42,050 nucleotides of DNA from NCBI GenBank assembly GCA_029865195.1, contig JAOUHH010000001.1, forward strand, positions 1-42,050, given 5' to 3'. The notes beneath the pieces were generated by a model that did not search any database, was not told where the DNA came from, and saw only the letters and a list, made by a program, of their open reading frames with translations. Shown here in pieces: positions 3,467-42,050 of the stretch. This stretch comes from Desulfobulbaceae bacterium (GTDB taxonomy: Bacteria; Desulfobacterota; Desulfobulbia; Desulfobulbales; UBA5123). A program made the position numbers and the translations under genes. Each line of letters begins with the position of its first letter. Positions within the stretch are counted from its first letter, which is position 1.

Positions 3467-3485
3467 TGTGAAACGGCACACATAA

Positions 3486-3530
3486 TTCCTAATCCTGGTG
3501 TCGCATGTTCGAATCATGCCGGGGGCACCA
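3486..3530 (+). other. att core: 3' fragment of tRNA-Arg(CCU), from the anticodon loop to CCA, not a complete tRNA
   Basis: T-arm GCATG-TTCGAAT-CATGC at 3503-3519. Acceptor 3' strand CGGGGGC, then A, then CCA at 3520-3530. Anticodon loop-like 'TTCCTAA' at 3486-3492. No complementary GCCCCCG 5' acceptor strand lies about 70 nt upstream. Confidence 0.6.
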
Positions 3531-3595
3531 ATTAAATCAAGTAGTTGCAGGTTGTTTTCGTGGGGTTGGCTCGCTGTCCCATTTCTTACTTTTTC

Positions 3596-14873: not shown

Positions 14874-15431
14874 TTATGTTTGCGGGATGTTGAGATCGTC
14901 GACGGCGTCAATCTGTCCGTCCGGCGTTGCCATATCCCACTCGGTATGCGTCCGCAGGAAGTCGTCGAGGGTGTCGACATCAACCTGGCCGCGGGTAAAC
15001 TCGATCTGTAAATCAATCACGGTGAAACATGTCGGCGCGGCGGCGCCCTCGTCGTTGCTCGATGCGGTTATGTCGAGCCGGTCGACGGTGTCGCCGAGGC
15101 CGGTGTCGCCGTAGATGGCATCCTCGATCAGTTCCTCGGCGACCAGCTGCTCCGCCACCACCAGCTCTGATTTCGGCTGATAAAAGCCGAAGTACAACCG
15201 AACCTGCGGCTGGCACATGATGCCGCCGCTGATCTGGGTGCGTTTGCCTCGGCTCGGGCAGGTGATCAGCACCAGCGGCAACTCCGAGGCGTGGATCTCG
15301 GTGCGGCGTCGGAAGCTGATCCGCGCCGCCACGTTCTTGCCCCATTGCTGCTGTGCAAAGGCCTGCAACGGCTCGTTGCCGGTGATCTGAACGGCCAGGT
15401 TGTCGAGCGCGGTCTTGAGGGTGGTGGTCAT
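14874..15431 (-). CDS. Tail completion / gp37-like virion protein
   Basis: Called on position in a FluMu-like gene order. No strong motif. Confidence 0.5.
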   Translation of the reverse strand: MTTTLKTALDNLAVQITGNEPLQAFAQQQWGKNVAARISFRRRTEIHASELPLVLITCPSRGKRTQISGGIMCQPQVRLYFGFYQPKSELVVAEQLVAEELIEDAIYGDTGLGDTVDRLDITASSNDEGAAAPTCFTVIDLQIEFTRGQVDVDTLDDFLRTHTEWDMATPDGQIDAVDDLNIPQT

Positions 15432-16000
15432 TTCGTTCCCCTGAATGCCTGAATGGCCTGGGCCAAGGCCCCACCGGCCGGAGCCTGGCCGACTGCCAGA
15501 CTGTAGCGGGCCTTCTTCTCGTCGGTGCGCTTGCCGAAATAGCGGTCAACCCAGGCGATCACCGGGCCGAGCAGCGCCAGGATAGTCATGTGGGAGCCGT
15601 TGATCTTCTCCAGGGTGGCCGCATTGTTGGTGACGATGGCCGACACCCAGGCGGACATGAACGCCACGATGGAGAGCAGCACCACGATGGACGCCCACTT
15701 GGCGATCCATGGGCGGGTGCTGTTGCCGGTGGCGTCGGCCTTGGCCAGCGAATCGACAATGCGCGACCATGCGTCGATGTCGGCAATCTCGACGTCCAGC
15801 TGCTTGGTGAGGATGGCGAACTGCTGGTCCGGCGGCAGGGTCTGGATGGCAGAATGCACATCCTGGCCGGTGGCCGTGGCCGGGAGTTGTTTGTCGGCGG
15901 GCAGCAGGGAGTTGATCATGCCGATGATCGGCGCCGCAGTCGGACACGCTACACTGAGAGCCGTTGATCCTGCCTTGAGCAGCACATCGAGGAGTTTCAT
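15428..16000 (-). CDS. Putative holin (3-TM, GTA-holin-like; start refined to MKLLDVLL)
   Basis: ATG at 15998-16000, 1 nt after the endolysin stop. Hydrophobic segments lie in the C-terminal half. Confidence 0.5.
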   Translation of the reverse strand: MKLLDVLLKAGSTALSVACPTAAPIIGMINSLLPADKQLPATATGQDVHSAIQTLPPDQQFAILTKQLDVEIADIDAWSRIVDSLAKADATGNSTRPWIAKWASIVVLLSIVAFMSAWVSAIVTNNAATLEKINGSHMTILALLGPVIAWVDRYFGKRTDEKKARYSLAVGQAPAGGALAQAIQAFRGTK

Positions 16001-16001
16001 A

Positions 16002-16505
16002 TCATCTCTCCCAAACTCTGGTGAGCCAGCCGCCGAACCACTTTTCGAGTTTAGGGTTGTTCTCCACGCACTCGACATAGTGGCCGAACTGCAGGCCGTT
16101 CAAGGTTTTCAGGATGCGTTCGGGCCGGGACGCCTGGTTGATGGCGGCGATGGTCCCCGACCCGATGACGCCGTCGACAACCAGATCGCGGTTGCCGTCG
16201 TTCCAGTTGGTCAGGTTGTAGGCCCGTTGCAGCCAGCGCATGACCTTGGGGCCGATGTTGACCATGGAGTCAAACACCTCCTCGGCAATGGCCTGATCGA
16301 CGATCTCGTCAAGTCGGGCCTTATCCCAGAAATCGCGCTTATAGATGCCCATGGCCTGGGTGATGGTCAGCGCGGCGATATTGAGGCTCGGATAACTCCG
16401 CTTGCTGATCCCGTATTTGGTCTCGCCGCCGGGATCGGCCGGGTCGTTGACGTAGCCGCCCTCGACGCCGATCAGGGCCTTGAATGCTTTTTCAAATTCG
16501 GCCAT
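16002..16505 (-). CDS. Endolysin, GH108 lysozyme with a peptidoglycan-binding domain (start refined to MAEFEKAF)
   Basis: 'EGGYVNDPADPGGETKYGI' is the GH108 signature. 'VVDGVIGSGTIAAIN' resembles a PG_binding_3 domain. Confidence 0.85.
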   Translation of the reverse strand: MAEFEKAFKALIGVEGGYVNDPADPGGETKYGISKRSYPSLNIAALTITQAMGIYKRDFWDKARLDEIVDQAIAEEVFDSMVNIGPKVMRWLQRAYNLTNWNDGNRDLVVDGVIGSGTIAAINQASRPERILKTLNGLQFGHYVECVENNPKLEKWFGGWLTRVWER

Positions 16506-17692: not shown

Positions 17693-18676
17693 TTAAGAGA
17701 GAGCGCAGCGCTTGTGCTGCTTGCTTTCGCCGATGGCGCCGTTATACGCACCGGTCCAGACATGGTCCGCGCCGAGTACCAGTTCGTTGCGCTGGGCCGG
17801 GCGGGCGTTGAGGTCTTCCCACTCGCCCTTCTTGTTCTTGAGGCCGGGCAGCGACACGTAATAGCTGGTGCTGGCGATCTTGGCGGTGGGGATGACGCCC
17901 TTGATGTTGTAGGTGATCTGGTTGTTGTTGGAGTTGGCGTTGACAAAACTCGCGGCCAGCGCCTTGTAGATGCGGGACATCAGTATCGGGTGGCAGGTGA
18001 TGTAGAAACCACTGCCGGCCGAGACGCTGTAGCCGGCAGCTTCCATCTCGGTGACGATGGCGGCGCAGGCGTTGTTGATGGTGGTGACGTCGTCGGTGGC
18101 GAACGCCTGGTTGATCCCAGCGCCCATGGCTGCCATCAGGCCATAGAAGAGATCGGCCTTTTGGTTATACCAGTTGTTGAAGGTGTCCTTGGTCAGGTCA
18201 TCAATCAGGTAATACTTGTTGAAACGGAGCCAGTCGTCCTCGATGGCGAAGCCGCCGATGAAACGGAGCAGGCCGACCTGTGACTTGGCGCTGGAAGGCA
18301 GGCGCGAGAGTTTGGCCTCTTCGCCGGTCTTTTTCTGGTAGAAGGTGACGCCGCCGGAGATGTCGAGCATCTCGAAGGTGTCGTTGGAGCTGGCCCGCAT
18401 GTCCACGTCGGCGAACAGGGCCTCATAGCCTCGATCCGGAGACTCGACGGTGTCGCTTCCGACCATGACGATGGGCGGACCGGAGGCGACGAGGTTCGGG
18501 TCGATACCGATGATCTTCTGGCCCTGCACGGACCCGGCGGCGACCATCTTGACCGAGTCGGCGGCGATGGCCTTGAAACCCTGGCAGACGGCGTCATAGA
18601 TGGCGACTTTCTGGAGATTGGCGGGAACCTTGCTCAACTTATCCCAGTCGATGAACTGCTTTCCGTTGATGATCAT
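17693..18676 (-). CDS. Major capsid protein
   Basis: 327 aa, following the protease/scaffold and decoration genes. Confidence 0.8.
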   Translation of the reverse strand: MIINGKQFIDWDKLSKVPANLQKVAIYDAVCQGFKAIAADSVKMVAAGSVQGQKIIGIDPNLVASGPPIVMVGSDTVESPDRGYEALFADVDMRASSNDTFEMLDISGGVTFYQKKTGEEAKLSRLPSSAKSQVGLLRFIGGFAIEDDWLRFNKYYLIDDLTKDTFNNWYNQKADLFYGLMAAMGAGINQAFATDDVTTINNACAAIVTEMEAAGYSVSAGSGFYITCHPILMSRIYKALAASFVNANSNNNQITYNIKGVIPTAKIASTSYYVSLPGLKNKKGEWEDLNARPAQRNELVLGADHVWTGAYNGAIGESKQHKRCALS

Positions 18677-18719
18677 GTTGTTACTCCTTGCTGGTGTTCG
18701 CGGTTAATCAAGGGGCCGC

Positions 18720-19352
18720 TTAATTTTCGTTGAGCATCACCATGACTTCGTCGTCGTCATCGGTGGTCGGTTCGGCGGATTTGCCGATCTTGCTGTTGGC
18801 CTGGGTAACGGCGAGGGTGAACTTGTCGCCGACCACGAAGTCGGTGGCGCCGTCGTTGATGGTAAAGGCGACAAAGCCGTTGGCATAGGCAACGCCGACC
18901 TCGGCGTCTGCCATCCGGCCGGACTTGGAGCCGATCACCGAGAAGGTGCCGCCATTGGCGGCGGCGGCGATGCACAGCAGGGTCCAGCTCTCGGCCACGG
19001 CGTTGGCGCCGACTGCTTCGCCGGTCACGGTGCCGTTGCCGGTGTTGCCGCCGTCGGCTACCGCGTCGGCGGCGGACATGCCCTTGGACTCGGTGGCCAC
19101 GCCGTTGGTGGCGTCCCAGAAACATTCCTTGCCGTCGGCGATGGCGCTGCTTGCGCCGGTGGTTTTCGGGAAGGATGCCCGGCCCCGGTAGATGTAGACG
19201 TTCTCGACGTTGGCGAGGGCGGCGGATACCGCGATCAGGATGTCGCCGTTGACCACGATGATCTCGTTGGCGGCTACGGCGGCGTTGTGGGTATGCTTGC
19301 GGGTCCGCAGATGCTGGACGCCGTCACGGGGGGTTGCGAGTTCGTTTGCCAT
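18720..19352 (-). CDS. Head decoration protein (DUF2190-like N-terminus with an extra Gly/Ala-rich domain)
   Basis: Lies just upstream of the capsid gene. 'VVNGDILIAVSAALANVENVYIYRGRASFPK...ECFWD' fits the decoration-protein pattern. Confidence 0.6.
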   Translation of the reverse strand: MANELATPRDGVQHLRTRKHTHNAAVAANEIIVVNGDILIAVSAALANVENVYIYRGRASFPKTTGASSAIADGKECFWDATNGVATESKGMSAADAVADGGNTGNGTVTGEAVGANAVAESWTLLCIAAAANGGTFSVIGSKSGRMADAEVGVAYANGFVAFTINDGATDFVVGDKFTLAVTQANSKIGKSAEPTTDDDDEVMVMLNEN

Positions 19353-19404
19353 GTTCGTTCTCCGTGTAATGAGTTAGGAGGTGAATATCGTTGCGCGGTG
19401 CCGT

Positions 19405-20550
19405 TTACTTGCTGTCGCGGGGCACCAGCGGATTCTTTGAGCCGGTGAAGGCGGCGTCGGTGGAGTCTGCCGACTTGTCGCGGCGGTCGTCGCCCTCAAG
19501 CTGGCCACCGTCCGGGAACTTCTCGTTCATCCGTTTCTGCAGGCCCTTCACTTCCTGCCCCAGGAACTCGACGTCGAACGTGGCGGCGAATCCCTTGGTC
19601 TTGGTCTTGGCCTCTTCAGTCTGCTCGATCTCGCCGAGGGCGGCCTTCATCCGGACATAGTCGGCAATCAGGCCATCCTGAAACTGCTTGCCGAGGGCGG
19701 CCATGGCCTTGGATTCCTCGACCTGGCCGGTGAGTTCGGTGATCTTGGCGTCCTTGGCTGCAATGACGGATTTGACGGACTCGGTGATCTGGTCGTCGGT
19801 GGTGTCGTCGCCGAAGGATTTACCCAACACGGCGCCCAACATCTTCTTGAGTGCGTTCATACCTTTTCCTCTCTGTTGTGGTTGGTTGCCTTCGTCGGCA
19901 TCTGCGCCGGACTTGGCGGATTTTTGCGAGGTTGCCCCCTGCTGCGCTCCGAGCCAGACAAGCGACCCCTCGGTGGCCTCACCGGGGCCGGTGTATTCCC
20001 AGAACATGGTTTCGCCGTGCTTGCCCTTTACCGGGGCCATGTCGGCGGCGATGAAAGAAATCGACCAATGGCGATAAGTGCCGCCGTTGATGTTGGCGAG
20101 GATGTCCTCGACGCTCGGCGTCTTGATCACGTAGTACCAGGCCCACAGCACCTTGACGGCGGCAACGCCGTCAGGCAGGCGCGGGTCTTCGCCGGTGAGC
20201 TCCTTGAATTTCTCCGGGCTGATCTGCTCGGTGGTGGCGTCGAAATAGAGGCCCAGCGGCAGATAGTCGCGGCGGGCGTGGAAATACAGGGTGGATTTGC
20301 CGGGCAGGGTGGTGGCGAAATCGTCGAGCAGCGCCTCGTTGAAGCGTTCCCGGTCGCGGTCAACGCCGTTGTGTGCCAGCAACTGCTTGCGGACAAAGAC
20401 GGCCTCGGCGGTGACGGCCTCAAGGGCGTAGCGGTTGATCTTGGCAAGGATGTCGTCGGTGATCTCGACACCGGCGGCAGTGGCCTTGAGTCCGCTGCCT
20501 GCCGACTTGCTCCGGATCTCGCCGGGGTTGTATGTGCTCTGGCCGGCCAT
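19405..20550 (-). CDS. Prohead protease fused to a scaffold-like C-terminus
   Basis: The N-terminal part has 'DRDRERFNEALLDDFATTLPGKSTLYFH', which is protease-like. The C-terminal part is a charged coiled coil. Confidence 0.6.
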   Translation of the reverse strand: MAGQSTYNPGEIRSKSAGSGLKATAAGVEITDDILAKINRYALEAVTAEAVFVRKQLLAHNGVDRDRERFNEALLDDFATTLPGKSTLYFHARRDYLPLGLYFDATTEQISPEKFKELTGEDPRLPDGVAAVKVLWAWYYVIKTPSVEDILANINGGTYRHWSISFIAADMAPVKGKHGETMFWEYTGPGEATEGSLVWLGAQQGATSQKSAKSGADADEGNQPQQRGKGMNALKKMLGAVLGKSFGDDTTDDQITESVKSVIAAKDAKITELTGQVEESKAMAALGKQFQDGLIADYVRMKAALGEIEQTEEAKTKTKGFAATFDVEFLGQEVKGLQKRMNEKFPDGGQLEGDDRRDKSADSTDAAFTGSKNPLVPRDSK

Positions 20551-21086
20551 CAGTCTTTTTTCCCTTTCTTCATCATGGCCAGCACATGCTCGCCGGTGAT
20601 GACCTTGGACTGCAGGCGGGTGGCCGGCTCGACCGCTTTCTCTTCCCCGGCTGCGGCGGGAGCATCATCAGCTGGGGCAGGGGTGGTGCGGATGAGTTCG
20701 GCGATCTTGCCGTTGGCCTCTTTCAGCGAGGCGGCAAGGGTTTTGTTGTCGGCATGGGCGGACTCAAGGGCGGCGGTCATTTCATCCTTGGCCTGGCGGC
20801 CTGCCTCGTGGGCTGCCTGGTGGGCGGCAAGCATGCCCTCGGCAGCGTCGCGCTCATCGGCGGAGATGTCGAAACCAAGAAGGTTTTCAAGGGCCGCCAC
20901 TTCCGGCTTTCCTTCTTCGGTGTACTCGTCGGCCGCCAACTCGGTGATCGCGCTGCAGATCATCTTCATACGCACAAGGGCGCGGCGGGTGGATGTAGGA
21001 TCGCTTTCGGCGTCCTTCTGGCCCTCAACGCCAGAACCCTTGAAGTCCTTGCCGTCGGTAGTGATCTTGTCGCTCTTTTTCGCCAT
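20550..21086 (-). CDS. Head-module protein, function unclear (possibly scaffold-related)
   Basis: First gene of the head-tail operon. ATGA coupling to the protease gene. Confidence 0.4.
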   Translation of the reverse strand: MAKKSDKITTDGKDFKGSGVEGQKDAESDPTSTRRALVRMKMICSAITELAADEYTEEGKPEVAALENLLGFDISADERDAAEGMLAAHQAAHEAGRQAKDEMTAALESAHADNKTLAASLKEANGKIAELIRTTPAPADDAPAAAGEEKAVEPATRLQSKVITGEHVLAMMKKGKKD

Positions 21087-21154
21087 GGGCCTGTCCTCCG
21101 TGCTGCATAGAAAGAGATGAAAAAGTTCTACTTTTTAAGGGGTTCTCTTTCTCG

Positions 21155-21199
21155 TAGCAGGTAAGCGGGACGCAGGCTGGCAGAGGATGTCACTTTGTG
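21155..21199 (-). promoter_or_regulatory. Conserved late-operon element, copy A, upstream of the head-tail operon
   Basis: 38 of 45 positions match 28067-28111 without gaps (counted by hand), including GCAGGCTGGCAGAGG and TGTCACTTT. Confidence 0.45.
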
Positions 21200-21220
21200 C
21201 GGGTGGGGGGGATGGGCAAC

Positions 21221-21245
21221 AAAAAACCCCGCCGGGATGGGCGGG
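21221..21245 (-). terminator. Rho-independent terminator ending the antirepressor transcription unit
   Basis: On the minus strand: CCCCGCC-loop-GGCGGGG followed by TTTTTT. Confidence 0.6.
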
Positions 21246-21273
21246 GTTAGGTGGGCGAGCGGTGATGGGCTGG

Positions 21274-21498
21274 CTACTTCGTGACGACTGAAAGCCGCCC
21301 CTTGGCTCCTTGTCTTTTGAGATAATCGTGATAGCCGGGCTGGGAGAGCAGACGCCCGGAAACAAGAATCAACTCCAAAAGGTCGCAGGTTTCAAGAAAA
21401 CCTACAATCGACCTTCTCCAATGGCATGCCGCCTTTGAGTGGCGACCGCCTTGATCGGCTGGGGGTCTTACCGGCAAACGGACGATGGTGGCGCTCAT
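21274..21498 (-). CDS. Hypothetical small protein coupled to the antirepressor gene
   Basis: ATGA overlap with the antirepressor stop. Coding status is uncertain. Confidence 0.3.
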   Translation of the reverse strand: MSATIVRLPVRPPADQGGRHSKAACHWRRSIVGFLETCDLLELILVSGRLLSQPGYHDYLKRQGAKGRLSVVTK

Positions 21499-22376
21499 GC
21501 TTCACCCCCTTCCGCCATATCGGCAAACCGGACAAAGCGGTGATAGCGGTAACCGTGGGCGATCTTGCGGCAAGGCTCGCGCCGCCATCCCAAAAACGCC
21601 AGCGATTCTGACTCGCGGGAAAAGAGTGTTCCAAGGTGCTTTGGGTTTCTGAAGATGAGCGGCAACCTGGGCGCCCGCCCGGCGGCGATGAACGCCCCGA
21701 AGAACTGTGCCGTGGTGCCCTGCAGCCATTGGCCGTCAGGCCCGGTGCCGGTTTCAAGGCCGCAGCCGTTCGGTGGTGATGGCAGCAGCAGGGAAAGATA
21801 CTGCGACAGGGTGGCGGCCACGTCCGAGGCGGCAGGGTCCGGCGATTCGATTTCCTCCAGCAGGTCGGCAACCGGCATGCCGGTGAAGAAGTGCAGCGCC
21901 CGAAGGCTGGCCTTGCCCTTGAGGTACTTGTCCGCCTCGCGGCACAGAGCCGAGATGGCGTCCATGGAAAGGCCAGGGGAGGGCAAGGCCGCGCCTCCGG
22001 CATACTGCATCCGTTCGGCCCTGCCGGTGGTCCAATATTGCCACAGGGCGTCGTCGCATTCGTTTTGATAAGAGAGGATTTTTTCCCGGAGTTCTGGGCG
22101 GACTTTCTTGTGATTGATGGTGGCCAGGAACCCGGCAACCTTGCGGATGGGGATGCAGATGGTTTCTTGAATCCCTCCTGCGGAAGGCGTTGTGATAATC
22201 ACAACACCCCATCGATCATTGTTATTCTGTAATTTCACATACTGACTTGCCCAGTTTAGCCCCATGTTCTCAATGATCGGCCTGACCGGGGCGAAGGGTT
22301 CGCCGTTGTGGTCAACGGCAAAGATGGTGTCCCCGTGAAAAGGGACTGGTTCAAGTTGTTTGGCTTGCGCGGACAT
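21495..22376 (-). CDS. Antirepressor-like protein with a P22 Ant N-terminal-type domain (start refined to MSAQAKQ)
   Basis: 'PFHGDTIFAVDHNGEPFAPVRPIIENMGLNWASQYVKL' fits the P22_AR_N pattern. AGGAG lies 8 nt upstream of the ATG at 22374-22376. Confidence 0.7.
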   Translation of the reverse strand: MSAQAKQLEPVPFHGDTIFAVDHNGEPFAPVRPIIENMGLNWASQYVKLQNNNDRWGVVIITTPSAGGIQETICIPIRKVAGFLATINHKKVRPELREKILSYQNECDDALWQYWTTGRAERMQYAGGAALPSPGLSMDAISALCREADKYLKGKASLRALHFFTGMPVADLLEEIESPDPAASDVAATLSQYLSLLLPSPPNGCGLETGTGPDGQWLQGTTAQFFGAFIAAGRAPRLPLIFRNPKHLGTLFSRESESLAFLGWRREPCRKIAHGYRYHRFVRFADMAEGGEA

Positions 22377-22533
22377 GGCGGCTTCTCCTTTGTTGGGGTA
22401 AGAACTCCCCGCCCTCTGCGCTTCCAAACACAAAAAGGGCGGAACCGTACGGGTTGGAAGACCGGAACAAAGGAACCGGCGAGCCGAAGCTCCCCGCACG
22501 GCCCACCCAAAAGGTAAGCTATGCTGCGGACAC

Positions 22534-22559
22534 AAAAAAACCACCTGCACTGGGGGTGG
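22534..22559 (-). terminator. Intrinsic terminator/attenuator inside the antirepressor leader
   Basis: On the minus strand: CCACC-9 nt-GGTGG followed by seven T. It is nested inside an 8-bp outer stem (22526-22533 paired with 22565-22572). Confidence 0.45.
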
Positions 22560-22623
22560 CGGTGGTGTCCGCCTTTGTTTCCGGGCTTCCAAACCCGGTA
22601 GCGGATTTTGCCGCTACACCCCC

Positions 22624-22652
22624 AAGTTATCTCCTGGTTTTTCTATTGTCAA
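22624..22652 (-). promoter_or_regulatory. Sigma70-type promoter pointing toward the antirepressor gene
   Basis: On the minus strand: TTGACA (22652-22647), 17 nt, TAACTT (22629-22624). Confidence 0.5.
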
Positions 22653-22653
22653 T

Positions 22654-22698
22654 AATTAAATGTGCGGTTAGGGTACACACCTTACCGCACATTTAATT
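22654..22698. repeat. Perfect 15-bp inverted repeat AATTAAATGTGCGGT-N15-ACCGCACATTTAATT (candidate operator)
   Basis: Read directly. It abuts the -35 of the promoter above. Its core is shared with sites at 31493-31589 and 42031-42044. Confidence 0.6.
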
Positions 22699-22707
22699 AC
22701 ATAGGCC

Positions 22708-23091
22708 ATGTATAACTATACCAGATGTCCACATTGCGAAAGACTATACAAACTCGGCGATAAAAAACTCCAAATTATTGGGCAAGAGTTTGCTTGTCGC
22801 TGCGGCCAGCGTTTTGTTGCAACGGCGATAGAGGGAATACTACTTAAAGAGGACATCAAACGTGCATGCAAATTTAACCTCCTCTCGGTTGACTACATTA
22901 ACAAAGAATCAAAAAGGGATTCATTGCCGTTTGGGGTTCTTTTTGAAGAGTTTATGGATATGGTAAAGGATCACGCAATAACAAAATTGATTCGTGACCA
23001 CATAAACAAAAACAGATCAAGCTGGCGGAAACTATCAACAAAGGATGTTGAGGAAATTATAGACAACTTCAAAAAGAATAACGACCGATAG
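22708..23091 (+). CDS. Zinc-ribbon protein; AT-rich cargo gene on the opposite strand from its neighbours
   Basis: 'CPHCERLYKLGDKKLQIIGQEFACRCGQRF' is a CxxC...CxC zinc ribbon. It is the only plus-strand gene inside the late region. Confidence 0.6.
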   Translation: MYNYTRCPHCERLYKLGDKKLQIIGQEFACRCGQRFVATAIEGILLKEDIKRACKFNLLSVDYINKESKRDSLPFGVLFEEFMDMVKDHAITKLIRDHINKNRSSWRKLSTKDVEEIIDNFKKNNDR

Positions 23092-23093
23092 TT

Positions 23094-23483
23094 TCACGGC
23101 AACCCAATGCCGTTACTATCGACCGCCCAAGCATCAATCGGTAGATTGTAGTGTTCAATCGTGCTGTTTAAGCGCAGCCAGTATTTACGATCTTTGGGGG
23201 TCTCAAGTATCAAGACGATACCAGCTTTTTTGCCGGTTTGAAGCGAGTAATAAAGTGCTTGCCCTATCGCTTCGGCCCACTTTTTCCCGAAATCAAACTC
23301 AACGGCGTTCGTTGCCGTGAGGCAGTCGCAACGGGTTTGATCAGGCAACACGACTTCCTGAACTCCGCGCTGCTCCTCACACCATTGCTGCTGATACCAC
23401 TTTTCCTTATGGATTGTCTTGCTTGCTGCCGTGAACGGGCACAGCACCATTAAGGCGATGGTTATTACGATTGTTTTTTTCAT
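23094..23483 (-). CDS. Secreted small protein with a possible PD-(D/E)xK-like motif (start refined to MKKTIVITIAL)
   Basis: Signal-peptide-like N-terminus. 'RCDCLTATNAVEFDFGKKWAE'. AT-richer by eye. ATG at 23481-23483. Confidence 0.55.
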   Translation of the reverse strand: MKKTIVITIALMVLCPFTAASKTIHKEKWYQQQWCEEQRGVQEVVLPDQTRCDCLTATNAVEFDFGKKWAEAIGQALYYSLQTGKKAGIVLILETPKDRKYWLRLNSTIEHYNLPIDAWAVDSNGIGLP

Positions 23484-30109: not shown

Positions 30110-30375
30110 CCCTCATTCACAATTCGTCTGATCTGTCTGGGGCAAAGGCCGAACCGTTCGGCCAGTTCGCCCACGTTGGCGCCGTTGAATAGGAGGCGGA
30201 TGCGGTGGTCGCGGGCCTCCCGGTTGAGCTCGTCCATGGTCGGCACCGTGATCCGGAAACCACCGAGCTCTTCGACCAACACCAGCATAATCGCGGCGCC
30301 AGCCTCCGCGCCAAACTCCTGCACCAGCCTGGCGGCGTATTGATCAATCAGTTCCCTGTTCTCGGCCCTCGACAC
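30106..30375 (-). CDS. Mor/C-family transcriptional activator-like protein
   Basis: The C-terminal HTH 'RIRLLFNGANVGELAERFGLCPRQIRRIV' fits the Mor family pattern. Confidence 0.65.
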   Translation of the reverse strand: MSRAENRELIDQYAARLVQEFGAEAGAAIMLVLVEELGGFRITVPTMDELNREARDHRIRLLFNGANVGELAERFGLCPRQIRRIVNEG

Positions 30376-31384
30376 TGGTGGCGCCCCCTTGAGTATAAAG
30401 TTGTTCCCATGTGCGCCAATAATCCCTCAAACTGCGGTACTCCTGATTGACCCGGCCGCGCCTCGGTAAATAACGGTCGGTGGTTGCTATGTTCTTGTGT
30501 CCGAGCCTGGCCGCGATTGCGGCGATGGTGAAGCCGCGCACAAAAAGCAGGTCGCTGCCGTGGGTGGCCCGGAACATGTGCGAGTGGATCCGTGGCTTGC
30601 GGACTCCGGCGGCGGTGGCTAGTTCTTTGACCAGGCGGTCGATGTCGTTGCCGGAAAGACGGCGGCCGACCAGTTGGTCGTTTTTGCGATAGCTGACAAA
30701 CAGCGGGTCGTCGATCTTCGCGCCCTGGGTGATCCGCACATTGAGCCAGCGGCGGATGAACACCGCCGGCGCGGCCCAGAGATCCACGGCCCGGCTGTGG
30801 CCCTGCTTGCCGATCTCTTCGTTGACCAGGATGTCGACATAGTGGCCATCGTCGACAAGGTCGGCCAGCCGCAGGCCGCACAACTCGCCAACCCGGAGAC
30901 CGGCAAAAGCCATTACGATCAGGATACAGGTGTCGCGCAGTCCCTTCTCGGTGGTCGGCGGGCTGGCCTCGAAAAACTTGATCACCTCGCCCCGGGTAAA
31001 ATACTGGATCATCTTCGGCTTGATGCGCGGCCTGGGGATCTGCGCTGTGATGTCCTCGGTGGCCAGTTTCTCATACACCAGGAACCGCCAGAACCCGGAC
31101 AACGCCCCGAGCTTGGTGTGGCGCGTGTATGTGCCGTTGCGGCGGTCGTAGTATAGATGCTTGAGCCATGCCTCGACGTCCTCGCGGGTGACCGACTCGA
31201 TGGCGGTGGTGCGGCCGTCCTGGTTGAGCCAGTCGAAGAACAGAGACACCCGGCGCTGATAATCGCCGACGCTCCGCTTGGTGAGGCCGCGCAGCACCAC
31301 AAGATGGTGGCCGTATTGTTCGAGCAGGTCGTCTAGCATCCCCCCCGCGCCCCCCCGGGAATAAGGTCTGAAAAACAGGCCCAA
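30344..31384 (-). CDS. Second tyrosine recombinase (XerC/D-like integrase); start may be at 31339
   Basis: 'AGLRVGELCGL', 'HMFRATHGS' and 'LGHKNIATTDRYL' are catalytic motifs. It also has an N-terminal SAM-like core-binding domain. Confidence 0.85.
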   Translation of the reverse strand: MGLFFRPYSRGGAGGMLDDLLEQYGHHLVVLRGLTKRSVGDYQRRVSLFFDWLNQDGRTTAIESVTREDVEAWLKHLYYDRRNGTYTRHTKLGALSGFWRFLVYEKLATEDITAQIPRPRIKPKMIQYFTRGEVIKFFEASPPTTEKGLRDTCILIVMAFAGLRVGELCGLRLADLVDDGHYVDILVNEEIGKQGHSRAVDLWAAPAVFIRRWLNVRITQGAKIDDPLFVSYRKNDQLVGRRLSGNDIDRLVKELATAAGVRKPRIHSHMFRATHGSDLLFVRGFTIAAIAARLGHKNIATTDRYLPRRGRVNQEYRSLRDYWRTWEQLYTQGGATSVEGREQGTD

Positions 31385-31492
31385 TTTAGAGGAGCCACTC
31401 GGTGGAGGTTGGAGGGGGTTGGGCTGAATCTTTTAGGGGGGGGTGGGGTACAGGTCAGCCCCAGACCCGACCATTCCCGACTCATTCCAATA

Positions 31493-31506
31493 CTTACCGC
31501 ACATTT
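31493..31506. promoter_or_regulatory. 14-mer CTTACCGCACATTT, identical to 22681-22694, next to an extended -10-like TGaTAACAT on the minus strand
   Basis: Read directly. It lies about 110-150 bp upstream of the recombinase start. Confidence 0.45.
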
Positions 31507-31558
31507 CATGTTATCAGCCTCCCGCTATCCCTTGGTATCCCGTATGATGCCCAACCAT

Positions 31559-31589
31559 TAACCGCACAATTTATTACTATGTGCGGTTA
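31559..31589. repeat. Inverted repeat TAACCGCACA-N11-TGTGCGGTTA (lox/dif-like or operator-like site)
   Basis: Perfect 10-bp arms. It can also be read as imperfect 12-bp arms with a 7-bp AT-rich spacer. Confidence 0.5.
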
Positions 31590-31846
31590 GAATGATTCCG
31601 TTATTCCGTCTATTATTTGCTACACGTTCCTAATAAGAAAAAAGAGAGAGACAACAGGGTGGTTTTCCCCTTTCCCCCCGGTTCTTTCAGCCGATTTCAT
31701 ACTATTACTAAGTAACCCCATATTAGGTATCTTCTCTCCCGCTAAACGAGGCCGGCGGCGGGTGCAGCGGCCCTCATGGGCGGGTAAAGGGAACAGCGGC
31801 CGCGCCCGGTCTTAGCTGTTTTGCGCCCCCCGAGGCGCTTTTTCAG

Positions 31847-32155
31847 TTGCACCCTAGCACCCTATTTTGTAAAGTGGCGTTTCTCCGACGTTTTTCTTGG
31901 GTGCATTTCAAAAAGCAGGCCCAAGAGTTGCACCCAACTTGCACCCACTTGCACCCAACTTGCACCCAACTTGCACCCAATCTAAATAACTAAAATTAAA
32001 TATAAAAATAAGGTTTGGGTGCAAGGGTGCAAGTGTTTCAGAAATGCGCCCGCCATCTCTGCAAAACACTAAGAAAAAAGGGGTGAGGTCTGGTTTTTTG
32101 ACAAATCCACCCTTTTGCCGTGTTTTTGCACCCACCAGCTTGCACCCACTTGCAC
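31847..32155. repeat. Iteron cluster with an AT-rich tract: candidate replication origin
   Basis: TTGCACCCA occurs five times in tandem at 31928, 31939, 31949, 31960 and 31971, spaced 10-11 bp. Further copies lie at 31847, 32126 and 32140, with a partial copy at 32150. Inverted copies lie at 31898, 32016 and 32024. AT-rich tract at 31981-32014. Confidence 0.7.
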
Positions 32156-32158
32156 TTT

Positions 32159-32731
32159 TCATGCTTCGTACACCAATAAAGCCGCGTCTACCAGCCAACG
32201 GGCAAAGGCTGGGACTGTTGCCGCCCGCTGGTGCTTGCTCATTAGTTGTTGCCGTCTCCGGTCGCCGCCCTGGTCATGCAACCGGTATGGGATAACAAGT
32301 TTTTCAGTCTTCACCCGTGAGAAACAGAGCCATGTTGCCTTTCTCATCGGGTATCCCCACCAGGCTTGCCATACAGAGATTGTCTTCATGTCCCCGACCG
32401 ATTGGCCTGGGCGTGGGAGGCCCGCCGCATCGAAAAGCCGGGAATGGGCCGGATGCTCCAACACGCCCCCACATTCCCGCAACTGGTCTGCACACCACAA
32501 GCCAAGCTCTTTCTCTCCCGGTAACGGTTTTGCTTGGTGCCCGCAATAGGCGCTCCATGCCCTGCACGGAGGATGGGCCACAATTGGCATCCCCCCTACA
32601 AATGATTTGGCATCCCGCCGCATGTCGTAGGCCTCGACCTCATGCATACTCTTATAGAAACTATTATTGGAGCAGCATAATACCGCCACGGTCTTGGTTG
32701 TGTCGCTGTCGTGGATGGCTATTCTCATCAT
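32159..32731 (-). CDS. 190-aa protein with C5-cytosine-methyltransferase-like motifs IV, VI, VIII and X, but no motif I or target-recognition domain
   Basis: 'HPPCRAWS' resembles PCQ motif IV. 'GGVLEHP' resembles ENV. 'WGYPMRKATWL' resembles QxRxR. 'QRAATVPAFARWL' resembles GNxVP. Resemblance judged by eye only. Confidence 0.45.
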   Translation of the reverse strand: MMRIAIHDSDTTKTVAVLCCSNNSFYKSMHEVEAYDMRRDAKSFVGGMPIVAHPPCRAWSAYCGHQAKPLPGEKELGLWCADQLRECGGVLEHPAHSRLFDAAGLPRPGQSVGDMKTISVWQAWWGYPMRKATWLCFSRVKTEKLVIPYRLHDQGGDRRRQQLMSKHQRAATVPAFARWLVDAALLVYEA

Positions 32732-33743
32732 TCACACAACCCGTAAATTGAAGAACACTTCGGCGGGGCTAGTGATTCGATCAGCCCGAATTGCCGCCCC
32801 CCCCGTACCGTGCGCGACCAATTAACCACATCGTCAATCATTGGCATTGGTAGATGGTGTTGCTTTTGGTGCTGTCCCGGCGTTTTGTCCGCAGCAAAAA
32901 AGGATGAGATACCTCGTTTGCTGCACAACCCAACTAACCGCTCCCACTCCCTGATCCGGTCTATCTCTCCCGGGAACCGCCAGGCAATGTTCCGGATCTC
33001 ATCTTTCCCGGCATGGATACACGGCATGCAACCGACCCGGCCACAACCCATCGAATACAATGGGTTTGGTTTGATGCCGTGCCGCCGGTGCATGGCAAAC
33101 ACTCGCTCTGCCGACCAACCAAGGATAGGGCGGACAATGATAAACTCCGGTGCCAGCCGCTCGATTTGCGGCATTTTTGCCCGGTCTGGTGATTCATCTG
33201 CCCGAACCCCTTGCCAAGACATCACTTTGTAGCCATCGGCCAAGAGAGGCACACCGCGACCTGATCGTCGATCAATTCCCGTTTCAACTCCTGTGAGCAG
33301 AAACGCGCCCGAGTGGAAGGGAACCGGCCCTTTAGAATGCACAGGTCAAGAAACGGGTTGCCGGTTGGGTACATATTCTCCAGCGCCCGGCGTTTTGCTT
33401 TGTTGGACCACCGGACCTTGCGGCCAGCACCAGTTTTCTTTTTGATCGGCTTCCCTTCGTCGTCCCGGCCTACAGTGACATACTTGTATTTCCTGCCGGT
33501 GCGCTGATCGTTGGCCACAAATGCGCGGTGCTTGAGTATCCGCTTGCTGAAATCGGCCTTAACCCGGACAATCGGCCCGGTCTTTTCTTCGAGGTAATCA
33601 AGATAATCATAGGTGGACTGGTGCTCGTTGCCGGTGTCCGCAAACACAGCGATATGAGGGATACCCTTCTCAATGGCAACCAGGCGCGTTGCGCCGGAGT
33701 CTTTGCCGCCGGAAACGGAAATAACGTGGATGGTTTCCATCAC
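32728..33743 (-). pseudogene. PAPS-reductase-family (PP-loop ATP pyrophosphatase) gene split into two frames
   Basis: ORF 33222..33743 carries the 'SVSGGKDS' PP-loop and 'CSQELK'. ORF 32728..33342 continues with 'SWQGVRADESPDR...GCMPC' in the adjacent reading frame. The junction is near 33255-33285. Confidence 0.7.
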
Positions 33744-36700
33744 CGCACCACCGTATGCCTAAATTTCAAAAACCTTTGCCCATGCACCACCTTGGAGTGC
33801 ATCTTGCCGTCTTTCCCCGGCACCAGATCCCAACCGCCTTTTTTAAGCAGCGGCAGGTCGTTCTTGAGCCTGGCGCCCAACTTTGCCCCGGTGTCATAGG
33901 GGTTGTGCTTGCCGTTGTTGCGGCAGAATCGGTCGAACACCAGGGCCAGTTCCTTGCTGGTCGTCTCAAACTCGATGTGGCTGGTCGTGCAGTCGTTTTC
34001 GGTGTCGTACACCGGCTTGGTCTTCACCATATCCAGGCCGTATTCCGGATGCGTCCACTCAAACACCGGCTCGTCGTAGCCGATTTTGTCTTTCAGTGGC
34101 AGGCTCAACTCCCGCATCTTGAGCATGTATTCCCGCACCACGCCGTCCAACAGCTTCAGGATGTTATTGCTGCCGATCTCGGTGTCCTTGGCCTTGGTGT
34201 TCTGGTAGTCGATCCACGCCTTGCGGATCTCCTTTTCGCCGGTCTCAATGCCGTGCCGGAAATCGTCCTCGCCGTAAAACGGCATGTGCGGCAGGGTCTT
34301 TTCGAGCAGCAGCATCATCAGCGCCCAGAACTCGTTCATCCGGTCCTTGGAGTGGCCCCGGTACTCTTTCTGCAGGATGGTGATGTATTCCCGGCGCCGG
34401 GCCAGGTTGGGCAGTATCTCTTTCTGAATCAGCTTGATAAACGCCGAGAGGATCAGATCGCGCTTTTTCACCAGCGCCCTGGTCACCTCGTCTTCGATAA
34501 AGTCGTCGCTCTGCCATTCTTTGCCGAACTCGATGTCCACCGTCCGGTTGATCAACTCCGGCTTGGTGAACGGCTCGATGGCGGTGATCAGCACCAGCGC
34601 CCGCGGGCTTTCCTCTGTGGTGTCGCTTTCGGTGCCGCCGGCGCGTTTGGATTTCTGGCCCCTGGTGGCGGCCAGCAACAGAAATTTGAGGATGGATTTG
34701 GTAACGTCGTCGCTTTCGAGGTTGTCGATCACCAGGATGGGGTTTTGCGCGGCCATGGAGTAAGCCGCCGCCGCGCTCGGGTCTTCGAGGTGGCCGTCGC
34801 CGTACAGCAACACGGTGATCAGCTTGGCCGCGGTACTCTTGCCGCAGCCGCTGCCGCCTGAAAACTTCATGTGGCCCTGGCTCGATACCAGATCGAGCAG
34901 CACAAAGGTGAGCAGCCAGCAGGTGATCAGGTAGCGCTGCTCCGGCGCGCAGGTGAAGGCGTCCTGCACCAGTTCCTTGTAGGCGACAAACCCCTCATGG
35001 ATATCGGCATCGGGCCGGAAGTTGAACGGCTGGATCTTCTTGCTGCTCTGCAGGAGGACCGAATCTTCGTTGAGCCCGTTGGGGATCTCGCTTATCCCGC
35101 CCTTTGCCGACATCTTGATGATGGTGTTGCCCGGTGAATTCAGGTTGATGAAGATCGAGTCGGTGGCCAGATCGGTATGCACCCACCGGGCCACGTCGAT
35201 CTTGCGGCCGGCGTTGTAGCCCTCGCTGGCCAGCGATTCCCACACACTCGGCCCCGGCGCCAGGTTGGGCAGCAGCATGGTGTGGCGTTTCATCAGGGCG
35301 TTGAATGGCCGGTTGTTGCCCACTTCATAAATCTGGTGGTTCAGGAGCAGATACACCTTGTTGGCCGCATTCCAGAAAAACCGGCCATCCCTGGCCATCT
35401 CCTTGTAGATGATCGCGGCCAGGGCGTTCGGCTCGACGTTCTTGGGCCCGCCCATGTTCTCGATATAGACACTCACCAGCCGCCGGAGCTCCAGGCCGTT
35501 TTCAATCTGGTGGCGGATCCCTTTTTCGGTGAAGCCGATGCCCTCCATCTTTTCGATGTATATCTGCTGCTGAACATCCGCCTCGGTGGCCACCAGCCGG
35601 AACACCTCCATCTCTTTCAGGTGGTCGAACCGTTCCTCAAGGGTCGCCAGCCGCCCGGCCCGGCCGATCTCCCATGTGAGATAGTCGACCGCCTCGTCCA
35701 TCAGCCGCTTGATCTCCTTGCGCCGGTCGCCCTCGAAGCCGCGCAGGTAGTCGTCCGGGTCTTTCACGGTGTCGGGGTAGGTGATCACCCGGACGTTTAT
35801 CTCCGGCATCAGCGCCCGGCATATCTTCCGCACGTAGCCGATCCCCTTGGCAAACGGCTTGCCCGGTTCCTCGTCGTTGTCCATCCAGAGGTAGAGCTTT
35901 TTGCCCCTGCAGGCGCTCTTGAGGTGTTTGATCTGCTCGTCGCTGATCTGGCCGATCATGCCGACCACGTTCTTGGTCTTGGTGTCGATCACCGAGAGCG
36001 TGTCGTCCTCGCCCTCAACCAGGATGAGCTCCTGGAACTTCTCCATGGCCTCCTGGTTGTAGAACCGCCACTGCTTGTGCCGTTTCTCGGCCGGCAGCTG
36101 GTAGGCAAGTTTCTTGGCCGGGTCTTTCATGGTGAAATGCAGCACCCGCCCGCGCTCGATGTGGGGGTAAATCGCCAACCCCTTGCCGAAAAAGTCGAGC
36201 ACCCTGGCCGCGCCTTCAATATCCTTTTCGCGGGCCAGCCCGGCGTCGATGATCTCGGCCGGGGTGTAGCCCTTGCTCTGCAGGTGGTCGATCAGCTGGC
36301 CGTCCGACCAGCCAACCTTCATGGCCTTGAGCACCTCCATGTCGTGGCCGCGGGTCTCGGTGAGGTATGCCTTGCCGCCGTTCACCAGCATGTGGCCGTG
36401 GTAGTAGTCGGCGGCATCGAGCATCAACTTGTCGCGGCGGCTCAAACGCACTTCCGGGGCCTTCTTGCGCTCGGTGAGGGCAATGCCTGCCAACCCGGCG
36501 GCCATCTTGAGCGCCTCGCCCTTGTCCAGGCTGTGAAACAGTTCCAGAAAGGTGAACACGTCGCCGCCCGCACCGCACTGAAAGCACTTGAACAGCTGCT
36601 CGTTGTCCTGGATGGAAAAACACCCATGCCCGCTACACATCGGGCACTGCTCAAGGTGCTTTCCCTTCATCTGAAAACCGGACTCGGCAGTAATGACGGC

Positions 36701-36745
36701 CTTGATGTTCAGCGCCGGCTTGACAAGTTCAAAGTCGCTGCTCAT
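33740..36745 (-). CDS. Primase-helicase: CHC2 zinc finger, TOPRIM and P-loop NTPase domains
   Basis: 'CPMCSGHGCFSI...FKCFQCGAGGDVFTF' is a DnaG-type zinc finger. 'ILVEGEDDTLSV' is TOPRIM. 'GGSGCGKST' is Walker A and 'ILVIDNLESDD' is Walker B. Confidence 0.9.
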   Translation of the reverse strand: MSSDFELVKPALNIKAVITAESGFQMKGKHLEQCPMCSGHGCFSIQDNEQLFKCFQCGAGGDVFTFLELFHSLDKGEALKMAAGLAGIALTERKKAPEVRLSRRDKLMLDAADYYHGHMLVNGGKAYLTETRGHDMEVLKAMKVGWSDGQLIDHLQSKGYTPAEIIDAGLAREKDIEGAARVLDFFGKGLAIYPHIERGRVLHFTMKDPAKKLAYQLPAEKRHKQWRFYNQEAMEKFQELILVEGEDDTLSVIDTKTKNVVGMIGQISDEQIKHLKSACRGKKLYLWMDNDEEPGKPFAKGIGYVRKICRALMPEINVRVITYPDTVKDPDDYLRGFEGDRRKEIKRLMDEAVDYLTWEIGRAGRLATLEERFDHLKEMEVFRLVATEADVQQQIYIEKMEGIGFTEKGIRHQIENGLELRRLVSVYIENMGGPKNVEPNALAAIIYKEMARDGRFFWNAANKVYLLLNHQIYEVGNNRPFNALMKRHTMLLPNLAPGPSVWESLASEGYNAGRKIDVARWVHTDLATDSIFINLNSPGNTIIKMSAKGGISEIPNGLNEDSVLLQSSKKIQPFNFRPDADIHEGFVAYKELVQDAFTCAPEQRYLITCWLLTFVLLDLVSSQGHMKFSGGSGCGKSTAAKLITVLLYGDGHLEDPSAAAAYSMAAQNPILVIDNLESDDVTKSILKFLLLAATRGQKSKRAGGTESDTTEESPRALVLITAIEPFTKPELINRTVDIEFGKEWQSDDFIEDEVTRALVKKRDLILSAFIKLIQKEILPNLARRREYITILQKEYRGHSKDRMNEFWALMMLLLEKTLPHMPFYGEDDFRHGIETGEKEIRKAWIDYQNTKAKDTEIGSNNILKLLDGVVREYMLKMRELSLPLKDKIGYDEPVFEWTHPEYGLDMVKTKPVYDTENDCTTSHIEFETTSKELALVFDRFCRNNGKHNPYDTGAKLGARLKNDLPLLKKGGWDLVPGKDGKMHSKVVHGQRFLKFRHTVVR

Positions 36746-39745: not shown

Positions 39746-40381
39746 TCAAATCCCTCCCACCCGCTCCATCTGTTCCTTGGTCGGCTTGGTGTAGATCATG
39801 GTTGATGAAAACGCCTTGTGACGGAGTTGCTCGGCGCAAAATTGCAGTTTTTGCTGCTGTTCTTCCGGCAGCAGGTTGATCAGGTCGGCGATGATCCGGT
39901 GCGCCTTCGTGTGCCGCAGGGCATGCGGGGTGTAGATGTTGATCCCCGCCTCGCGGCACCAGTTCCCCATCAGGTCGTTAAAGGTCCGCGCCCCGATCCG
40001 TCCGCCCTTCTTGCTCACAAAGAGCGGGGCGTCGGCGGCCAGGCTTTCGCCCCATGTCCGCTTGCGGCGCAGGTGCGCGGCCAGAATCTCGCGCAGGTCT
40101 TTGTTCATGTAAACGGCGCCGGTCGCTCCCTTCTTGGCGATCCGCTCGTCGACCACCAGCTGGTTCTTGATGGTCACGCCGTTGTCGGTTACGTCGCCCA
40201 CGTTCAGGGCGATGGCCTCGCCGCGCCGCAGGGCGGTGTGGCGGCACATCTTGAGCAGGGCGAAGTCGCGCTCCGCCTGCTTGCCCTTGCGGCCTTTGAT
40301 GGTCGCAAAGAGCGCTTTTTCTTCCGCCTCGGTCAGGTAGTTTTCCCCGGCCCTGGTCTGGATAGGGTTGTTCATGGTCAT
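39746..40381 (-). CDS. Third, small (211 aa) tyrosine recombinase without an N-terminal core-binding domain
   Basis: 'TALRRGEAIAL', 'HALRHTKAH' and 'LRHKAFSSTMIYT'. GGGAGG precedes the ATG at 40379-40381. Confidence 0.8.
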   Translation of the reverse strand: MTMNNPIQTRAGENYLTEAEEKALFATIKGRKGKQAERDFALLKMCRHTALRRGEAIALNVGDVTDNGVTIKNQLVVDERIAKKGATGAVYMNKDLREILAAHLRRKRTWGESLAADAPLFVSKKGGRIGARTFNDLMGNWCREAGINIYTPHALRHTKAHRIIADLINLLPEEQQQKLQFCAEQLRHKAFSSTMIYTKPTKEQMERVGGI

Positions 40382-40683
40382 GGATTGCCTCCCGTTGCTG
40401 TTGGTTGTGCCTCGAAGGTCTCGCGGGGCAGGCGGCGAGGCATACCGCTTTTCGGGGCGCACTCCCTATCCCCGCGATTCCAGATGATGAACCCGACCAC
40501 CGACGTGGCCAGATAAAAGCAAAAAAGAGCCACCGCCGGCCAGTTGCCGACCCGGTAAAACGCGCCGATCCAGCCGATGTTGGCGAATATCCACACACCC
40601 TGCCCACTGCGGCGGCGGGCCATATTGAGCACCGCGCCGGTCATGCTGAGTCCGGTGAGCATCCAGGTCGGCTCAAGAGGCAT
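40378..40683 (-). CDS. Small integral membrane protein (about 3 TM helices)
   Basis: Hydrophobic segments with conserved Trp and Gly residues. ATGA coupling to the recombinase gene. Confidence 0.45.
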   Translation of the reverse strand: MPLEPTWMLTGLSMTGAVLNMARRRSGQGVWIFANIGWIGAFYRVGNWPAVALFCFYLATSVVGFIIWNRGDRECAPKSGMPRRLPRETFEAQPTATGGNP

Positions 40684-42030: not shown

Positions 42031-42044
42031 CTCACCGCACATTT
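42031..42044. promoter_or_regulatory. Third copy of the 14-mer (CTCACCGCACATTT, one mismatch), upstream of the CII-like gene
   Basis: Read directly. It lies about 90-100 bp upstream of the start at 41942. Confidence 0.4.
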
Positions 42045-42050
42045 GTCCTT

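Follow-up and report, generated by a model that had tools for sequence, protein, structure and literature searches.

The window analyzed here is a whole contig of 42,050 bp from a 2.7-Mb genome in 377 contigs, and no terminal repeat was found on it. A 0.8-kb gap contains the short repeats, and all genes in its vicinity are on the - strand. Their order is a primase-helicase gene (33740-36745, 1001 aa), a split gene for a PAPS reductase-like protein, a gene for a 190-aa protein assigned to phrog_12600 (32159-32731), the repeat gap, a gene for an XerC/D-like tyrosine recombinase (30344-31339), a gene for a Mor-family activator, and the late genes, where small genes are followed by terS-like, terL, and portal genes. 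The non-coding gap covers 31385-32158 and reaches to 31340 if the recombinase starts at an ATG. The recombinase matches Pfam PF00589 and PF02899, with NCBIfam XerD/XerC-like models below cutoff. Its family has a palindrome of its own, ACCGCACA-N11-TGTGCGGT, which is conserved upstream of the gene and differs from the repeats discussed below; in the window this site (TAACCGCACA-N11-TGTGCGGTTA, 31559-31589) is separate from them. The window ends (42031-42050) in CACCGCACATTTG, which is similar to one half of the ACCGCACA palindromes that precede the gene for the Xer-like recombinase.

Elsewhere, the window has genes for a CI-like repressor, a CII-like protein, and a canonical integrase (2381-3466). 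Directly after the integrase gene is a sequence resembling the 3' end of a tRNA (GGTGTCGCATGTTCGAATCATGCCGGGGGCACCA, approximately 3497-3533, within 3467-3595), which by its sequence is likely attP. Because this site is intact, we take the contig to be the excised form; a search of the rest of the window's own genome found no attB copy. At 22435-22630, directly upstream of an anti-repressor (Ant) gene, Rfam identifies a C4 antisense RNA together with a1/b1 targets and isrK, an arrangement that is a P1/P7-type immunity module within the late region. The interval 39746-40476 holds a short recombinase-like gene. XerC/XerD models match its 238-aa product in their C-terminal half only, and many relatives have a counterpart upstream of the helicase (31-73% identity). 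An int-alpA RNA motif is located at 40410-40476. When the window was compared to cultured phages with blastn, only fragments of PAPS reductase were matched.

The repeats, hereafter iterons, are 9-10 bp long, with the form TGGGTGCAA when read on the gene strand. Exact copies of TTGCACCCA occur eight times in the 42-kb window, all of them inside 31928-32148, with seven on the + strand (31928, 31939, 31949, 31960, 31971, 32126, and 32140) and one on the - strand (32016). Dinucleotide-preserving shuffles of the window averaged 0.48 copies and never exceeded 3. No exact copy was found elsewhere in the window, near-matches outside the array were at or below chance level across the 42 kb, and the tandem-dimer pattern was not found elsewhere in the 2.7-Mb genome. 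Copies with one mismatch are located at 31847 (+, TTGCACCCT), 31898 (-), and 32024 (-), one with two mismatches is at approximately 31856, and a partial copy, TTGCAC, is at 32150. Proceeding away from the helicase, the array begins with the proximal iterons (32126-32155, +), made up of two exact copies and the partial one, which in relatives come right after the helicase stop. An inverted pair with an 8-bp offset (32016-32032, -), consisting of the exact copy at 32016 and the one-mismatch copy at 32024, borders an AT-rich tract of 35 nt (31980-32014, delimited as 31980-32015 in our feature list) that has approximately 89% A+T compared to 40% for the window, and that we propose to be a DNA-unwinding element. 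On its other side are five tandem iterons (31928-31979, +) with spacings of 11, 10, 11, and 11 bp, followed some 30 bp further on by a single inverted iteron (31898-31906, -; the conserved "30<" element). The array closes with a distal pair (31847-31864, +; the conserved ">8>" element), in which TTGCACCCT is followed by AGCACCCT and the GCACCC cores lie 8 bp apart. The first-pass annotation had described about eight direct copies plus a partial one and three inverted copies, with five copies in tandem at 10-11 bp and an AT-rich tract flanked by the copies, and this description was accurate.

No DnaA box (allowing up to one mismatch) was present in 31340-32158, no IHF consensus was present in the non-coding gap, an Rfam scan of the array region returned nothing, and promoter and terminator scans were at chance level. 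The cumulative GC skew turns near 28 kb rather than 32 kb and so says nothing useful about where the origin lies. At 32060-32100, in the interval that separates the proximal iterons from the inverted pair, a run of A is followed at a distance of about 14 nt by a run of T (AAAAAAC...CCCTTTTTT). This feature is kept in three relatives (L042, L043, and L045) and could be a terminator of the helicase operon or a bent-DNA element.

We compared the array with 50 related loci from IMG/VR, GTDB genomes, one metagenome contig, and one plasmid, whose helicases are 44-76% identical to that of the window; these loci were fetched with the helicase as query, and the constancy of the helicase among them is partly by construction. 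The layout is kept in 48 of the 50 loci, namely 28/30 in a first set and 20/20 in a second set that was scanned fully de novo. De novo detection recovered exactly five tandem copies at 10-12 bp in 28/30 of the first set, and five or six in all 20 of the second. Read along the gene strand, one to three direct copies come after the helicase stop, and then, after roughly 100 bp, two inverted copies 8 bp apart (the "<8<" element, kept in most relatives), an AT-rich spacer of about 35 nt, the five tandem copies, about 29 bp, one inverted copy, about 45 bp, and finally two direct copies 8 bp apart. The spacer averages 83% A+T in 30 loci, compared to 48% for the loci as a whole, and ranges from 74 to 94% in the 20 further loci. 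In most loci, the first iteron is found 3-20 nt past the helicase stop codon, and inverted copies flank the tandem set at fixed distances.

The iteron sequence itself is lineage-specific. There are about 15 types, and all copies within one locus change together; the relatives carry TGGGTGCAAG, GTGGTGCAGT, GGTAGCAGT, TGGTGAAAGT, GGGGGAAAGT, and GGGGGCAG, as well as TGGGTTGAAG, TGGGTGGATG, AAGTGCATG, GGTGCAATC, and TGGTTGCAAG. A layout that stays fixed while the sequence drifts, yet remains uniform within each locus, points to repeats that are read by a protein encoded by the element itself. An exact-pattern scan of IMG/VR returned 33 matches, most of which were two-copy chance matches, and a metagenome scan returned at least two loci. 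Two contigs are worth describing separately. One relative (L074, 8006-8302), probably a deletion derivative, has an intact primase-helicase gene with no array, recombinase, or Mor, and its terL gene begins 0.3 kb further on. The other contig (L021, IMGVR_UViG_3300012018_000235), from an unrelated phage of low GC content, begins with sets of (A)TGGGTGCAA(A) in both orientations (positions 1-300, 13 copies in all), next to a gene for a 201-aa protein whose C-terminus carries a CHC2 primase-type zinc finger; terS and terL come next. It shares the core motif, and a homolog of the window's helicase is not visible, as the contig ends there.

The first-pass annotation had placed the array between the replication genes and a recombinase gene. 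The recombinase side of this holds, and the recombinase is the usual downstream neighbor of the array, but the gene adjoining the array on the other side, at 32159-32731, is cargo. The primase-helicase gene ends at 33740, and in the window it is separated from the array by 1.6 kb holding the split PAPS reductase-like gene and the 190-aa phrog_12600 gene (32159-33743, -). These are not part of the origin machinery, since they are absent from one relative (L042), in which only 17 nt separate the helicase stop from the array, the cargo of other relatives is different, such as a gene for a 406-aa protein at the same position in L043, and homologs of the 190-aa protein occur in unrelated contexts that lack these repeats. 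The stretch between the helicase stop and the array is a cargo hot spot (32159-33743 in the window, 5097-6317 in L043, and 3458-3975 in L045), occupied in different relatives by the PAPS reductase-like and 190-aa genes, by the 406-aa gene, or by 0.5-2 kb of other DNA, and empty in others. The PAPS reductase-like gene (32728-33743) is divided into two overlapping ORFs (173 and 204 aa), each of which aligns with a consecutive portion of phrog_424, and it reads as a frameshift or a pseudogene.

The same annotation had noted no Rep-type initiator, and here we depart from it, as the 1001-aa primase-helicase is a likely candidate on the basis of both its predicted fold and covariation with the iterons. 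Its N-terminus has a DnaG-type zinc ribbon and a Toprim primase domain (Pfam PF01807 and PF13155), and residues 1-400 match DnaG in the PDB. A P-loop helicase domain follows, with Walker A at approximately residues 630-638. The only profile match of the C-terminal half is to phrog_47, Pfam gave no match, sequence and profile searches against the PDB gave none, and neither did tblastn against a phage collection. An AF2 model of residues 540-1001 (pLDDT 87) was compared to known structures with Foldseek. The top match was Cch of SCCmec (5dgk, E 8.7e-10, TM 0.44-0.48), along with SaPI PriRep1 bound to dsDNA (7pds) and the SaPI5 primase-helicase (7ola) at E-values of 2.5e-5 to 1.3e-4, and further matches included NrS-1, ASFV PrimPol, poxvirus D5/E5, and AAV Rep. 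At the level of fold alone, the model thus places the helicase half with the self-loading initiator helicases, a class of hexameric SF3/MCM-like AAA+ enzymes. The C-terminal domain (residues 885-1001; 33743-34093, -) is modeled as a beta sheet with two helices, ending in a beta hairpin (pLDDT 89.5). Modeled in isolation, it had nothing significant in a Foldseek search of the PDB (best E 0.18), and we propose it as the DNA-binding domain that would read the iterons, possibly as a winged helix.

To look for residues that track the iteron sequence, we scanned about 990 scored alignment columns in 31 helicases. Residue 986 (V986 in the window, codon 33788-33790), which lies in the terminal beta hairpin, is the only column that separates two iteron classes perfectly, with the qualification that these classes were defined after the protein alignment was seen. 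Where GGT comes directly before the G(C/A)A core, residue 986 is I, V, T, or C, and where the iterons have GGGG or GGTA, it is K or R. The switches are independent and spread over the tree, as in L071 (inside an I clade), L053 compared to L051, L070 compared to L049, and L052/L068. The distinction between basic and non-basic residues held in 18 of the 20 further loci, in which the K/R cases belong to already sampled lineages and are not independent; L108/L109, a single new lineage with GGTTGCA and R986, is an exception, and L120 has M986. The hairpin (965-990) is hypervariable even between pairs with the same iteron, and changes linked to iteron switches fall in 7 of its columns compared to 2-5 in same-iteron controls, which is only modest clustering. 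In the preceding helix, residue 961 is K, R, or Q with GCAA, GCAG, or GAAA, which is suggestive, but this association is confounded by phylogeny. Sliding-window identity between sister helicases with different iterons revealed no sharply delimited specificity domain. Taken from alignments, the covariation at residue 986 supports DNA contact by the C-terminal domain, and with it the view that the primase-helicase is the likely initiator.

Other proteins encoded nearby were also considered as iteron binders. The 190-aa protein was rejected because its homologs occur in unrelated phages that lack these repeats and L042 lacks the gene while retaining the array. The Xer-like recombinase is not the binder either, as L071 keeps a complete array with no recombinase and with Mor directly after, and no recombinase column covaries cleanly; the single column that separates the classes is hypervariable, with no consistent residue classes. 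For the Mor, terS-like, 197-aa, and 238-aa proteins, there was no clean covarying column or there were too few loci.

We conclude that the interval 31847-32155 very probably serves a temperate phage as its vegetative origin, of a kind similar to those of SaPIs and P4 and bound by the phage's own primase-helicase, and we put the probability of this at roughly 80%. The reading draws on the non-random repeats, the conserved architecture, the concerted change of the iterons, the fold class of the helicase, and the covariation at residue 986. It also draws on the observation that the array tracks the helicase gene, with variable cargo between the two and with the recombinase missing from L071, where the array is kept. 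The proposal of the first-pass annotation that the region is an iteron-type replication origin is thus borne out by the layout in 48/50 relatives, by the concerted iteron change, and by the constant position of the array after a gene whose product is predicted to fold like self-loading initiator helicases. In the mechanism that we envision, a single protein, with a DnaG-type primase fused to an AAA+ helicase like those of Cch and SaPI Rep, would act as both initiator and replicative helicase. Its C-terminal domain would bind the iterons, and helicase rings would assemble on the opposed iteron sets that flank the 35-nt AT tract, with the five tandem copies and the one inverted copy perhaps serving the six subunits of one hexamer. 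The AT tract would then melt, the helicase would load itself with no separate loader, and its own primase domain would prime synthesis. The Xer-like recombinase is probably a resolvase that acts with its own palindrome to resolve multimers of the replicon.

The main residual alternative is that the array binds the primase-helicase but works as a cis-acting enhancer similar to crr of P4, with initiation taking place at another cluster of iterons elsewhere. The P4 cluster that directly follows alpha is crr, which is not the site of initiation, and ori is 4.5 kb away; moreover, the window contig is not closed and ends in the immunity region, so that a short stretch is unseen. However, a second cluster is absent from the 42 kb available, and the array has its own AT tract between opposed iterons, like complete SaPI origins. 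For these reasons, we regard an enhancer role as unlikely.

Even less probable, in our estimation, is that the array is a plasmid-type maintenance element, serving either handcuffing copy control or as a centromere for an episomal prophage. This idea is of interest because of a plasmid. Among 72,556 plasmids, the helicase half had one match, to NC_020305.1 of Desulfocapsa sulfexigens DSM 10523, a circular replicon of 36.75 kb (our locus L088) that encodes ParA, restriction-modification systems, and a Rep protein of its own (15010-16305), and that has no phage structural genes. It carries the helicase at 18533-21511, an array of identical architecture at approximately 21613-21925, and a tyrosine recombinase at 22084-23115, and a MAG contig (L075) matches the plasmid with 87% identity across 10.7 kb. 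In the helicase tree, the plasmid protein groups with that of phage L045 and is nested within the phage clade. The presence of the cassette on this plasmid indicates that it is portable between phages and plasmids. The excised configuration of the window contig, with its attP intact, and the Xer-like recombinase with its own site adjoining the array likewise speak for a maintained episome. Nonetheless, no ParA/ParB/ParM-type partition gene was found in the window with Pfam, PHROGs, or NCBIfam, a canonical integrase and attP are present, and any induced phage would be expected to yield an excised contig. A relative within a 179-kb Geobacter MAG contig (G001:C7, loci L084-L086) occurs as an integrated prophage of about 51 kb, spanning 1815-53247 and bounded by perfect 46-bp direct repeats (1815-1860 and 53202-53247), with one end in a tRNA-Pro(GGG) gene and the integrase at the other. 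The plasmid also has its separate Rep gene, and the cassette may not be what drives its maintenance. Iteron origins are normal for the lytic replication of temperate phages and their satellites. The suggestion that the element may persist as an episome is therefore unsupported, given the absence of ParA/ParB-type genes in the window, the integrase and intact attP, and the integrated relative, and a plasmid that carries the same cassette does not imply that this phage does so.

Two further explanations have been considered, one of which is that the repeats are accessory, architectural sites of the Xer-like recombinase or arm-type sites of attP. The recombinase gene does come after the array in nearly all loci, and lambda Int is known to use phased arm or accessory sites. 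Yet the SAM-like domain of the recombinase begins at about residue 6, with no arm-binding domain, and its conserved palindrome differs in sequence from the iterons. The relative in which the array is kept and the recombinase is missing, the lack of consistent residue classes in the only class-separating recombinase column, and the location of the true attP, at the tRNA 3' end beside the other integrase, also argue against this, and we find it very improbable. The other is that the repeats are transcription factor operators or terminase (pac/cos) sites. In its favor, the array is positioned at the boundary of the early replication genes with the recombinase, Mor, and late genes, GGGTGCA repeats occur just upstream of terS in two unrelated contigs (L021 and L004), and some contigs end at the array. 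We likewise find this very improbable, since several genes and 4 kb separate the array from terS in the window, the array occurs on the plasmid with no terminase, the L045 and L042 contigs continue through it, and five phased copies with an AT tract between opposed copies are origin-like.

If the vegetative origin reading is right, it provides a proposed origin and initiator for a large family of uncultured temperate phages, the hosts of which, according to MAG names, include Geobacter/Desulfuromonadales, Thermodesulfovibrionales/Nitrospirae, and Methylococcaceae, and for a module that is also present on one plasmid. The approximately 50 natural variants, with one fixed layout and about 15 iteron sequences, form a data set on how self-loading helicases read DNA, and the family yields a prediction at the level of a single residue, I/V compared to K/R at position 986. 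A minimal replicon derived from the cassette could also serve as a vector backbone in Desulfuromonadales or Desulfobulbales. A broader scenario, which we consider possible but doubtful, is that helicase, iterons, and Xer-like resolvase together form a portable replicon cassette that moves between integrative temperate phages and plasmids, that some phages of the family could thereby gain a facultative plasmid-prophage state, and that the specificity of the cassette is reset through a few residues. Were this true, very few residues of the terminal hairpin (for example, position 986) would suffice to reset origin specificity, and the approximately 15 mutually "incompatible" origin types would allow related elements to share a cell without cross-firing.

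Among known systems, the closest parallel is with SaPIs and Cch. In SaPIs, the C-terminal domain of Rep binds iterons immediately downstream of rep, these iterons are in opposite orientation around an AT-rich region with a span of about 300 bp, and the origin fires with no separate helicase loader (PMC9371898; bioRxiv 10.64898/2026.10.17.759575). The features that recur in our family are the opposed iterons around an AT-rich center within about 300 bp, the location of the origin immediately 3' of the helicase gene in most relatives (with 1.6 kb of cargo between them in the window), and a helicase that, according to its model, would act as its own initiator. Proteins of this group (5dgk, 7pds, and 7ola) give the best structural matches, and primase is fused to helicase as in SaPI PriRep5. 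Unlike in SaPIs, however, the iterons are 9-10 bp rather than 5-6 nt, and they follow a strictly stereotyped, asymmetric arrangement of two, five, and one copies with outlying pairs. The window protein has no detectable sequence similarity to the SaPI and Cch proteins, its primase is DnaG-type (CHC2 zinc ribbon and Toprim), and its C-terminal domain is not demonstrably a winged helix. SaPIs are also satellites, whereas this element is a full temperate phage (or, in one case, a plasmid).

P4 offers a second parallel, as its alpha protein has three parts, a zinc-ribbon/Toprim primase, a P-loop helicase, and a C-terminal DNA-binding domain (PMC2777425). The window protein shares this three-part design, P4 has 8-bp iterons in both orientations, and the gene order in the P4 record (alpha, terminator, crr iterons, attP, int) is similar to the order here. 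Beyond this, the two diverge: Pfam finds D5_N, DUF5906 (SF3), and Pox_D5 in P4 alpha and none of them in the window protein, and only the zinc ribbon aligns by BLASTP (E 1e-5). P4 needs two clusters, ori and crr, compared to a single one in the unclosed 42-kb contig, and the recombinase neighboring the P4 cluster is its integrase, while the integrase of the window is located elsewhere. An attP with arm-type sites differs as well, in that the neighboring XerC/D-like recombinase here has no arm-binding domain and the attP-like tRNA 3' end is at about 3497-3533.

The term "plasmid-style", which had been applied to this origin, is apt in that a homologous cassette resides on a real plasmid, NC_020305.1, and in that tandem, helically phased repeats beside an AT-rich unwinding element are also found in classical iteron replicons (P1 oriR/RepA, F, pPS10, and RK2) and in lambda O/ori. 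It is less apt in other respects, as no Rep_3/RepA- or O-type initiator was found among the scanned window ORFs (Pfam, PHROGs, and NCBIfam), the DnaA box is lacking in 31340-32158, classical iterons are 17-22 bp in length compared to 9-10 bp here, and the phage has neither an incA-like control array nor partition genes. Classical replicons and lambda recruit the host DnaB, whereas the helicase modeled here is proposed to load itself. The principle of such an origin is already known from SaPIs and P4, and what is new is a group of phages that carries one.
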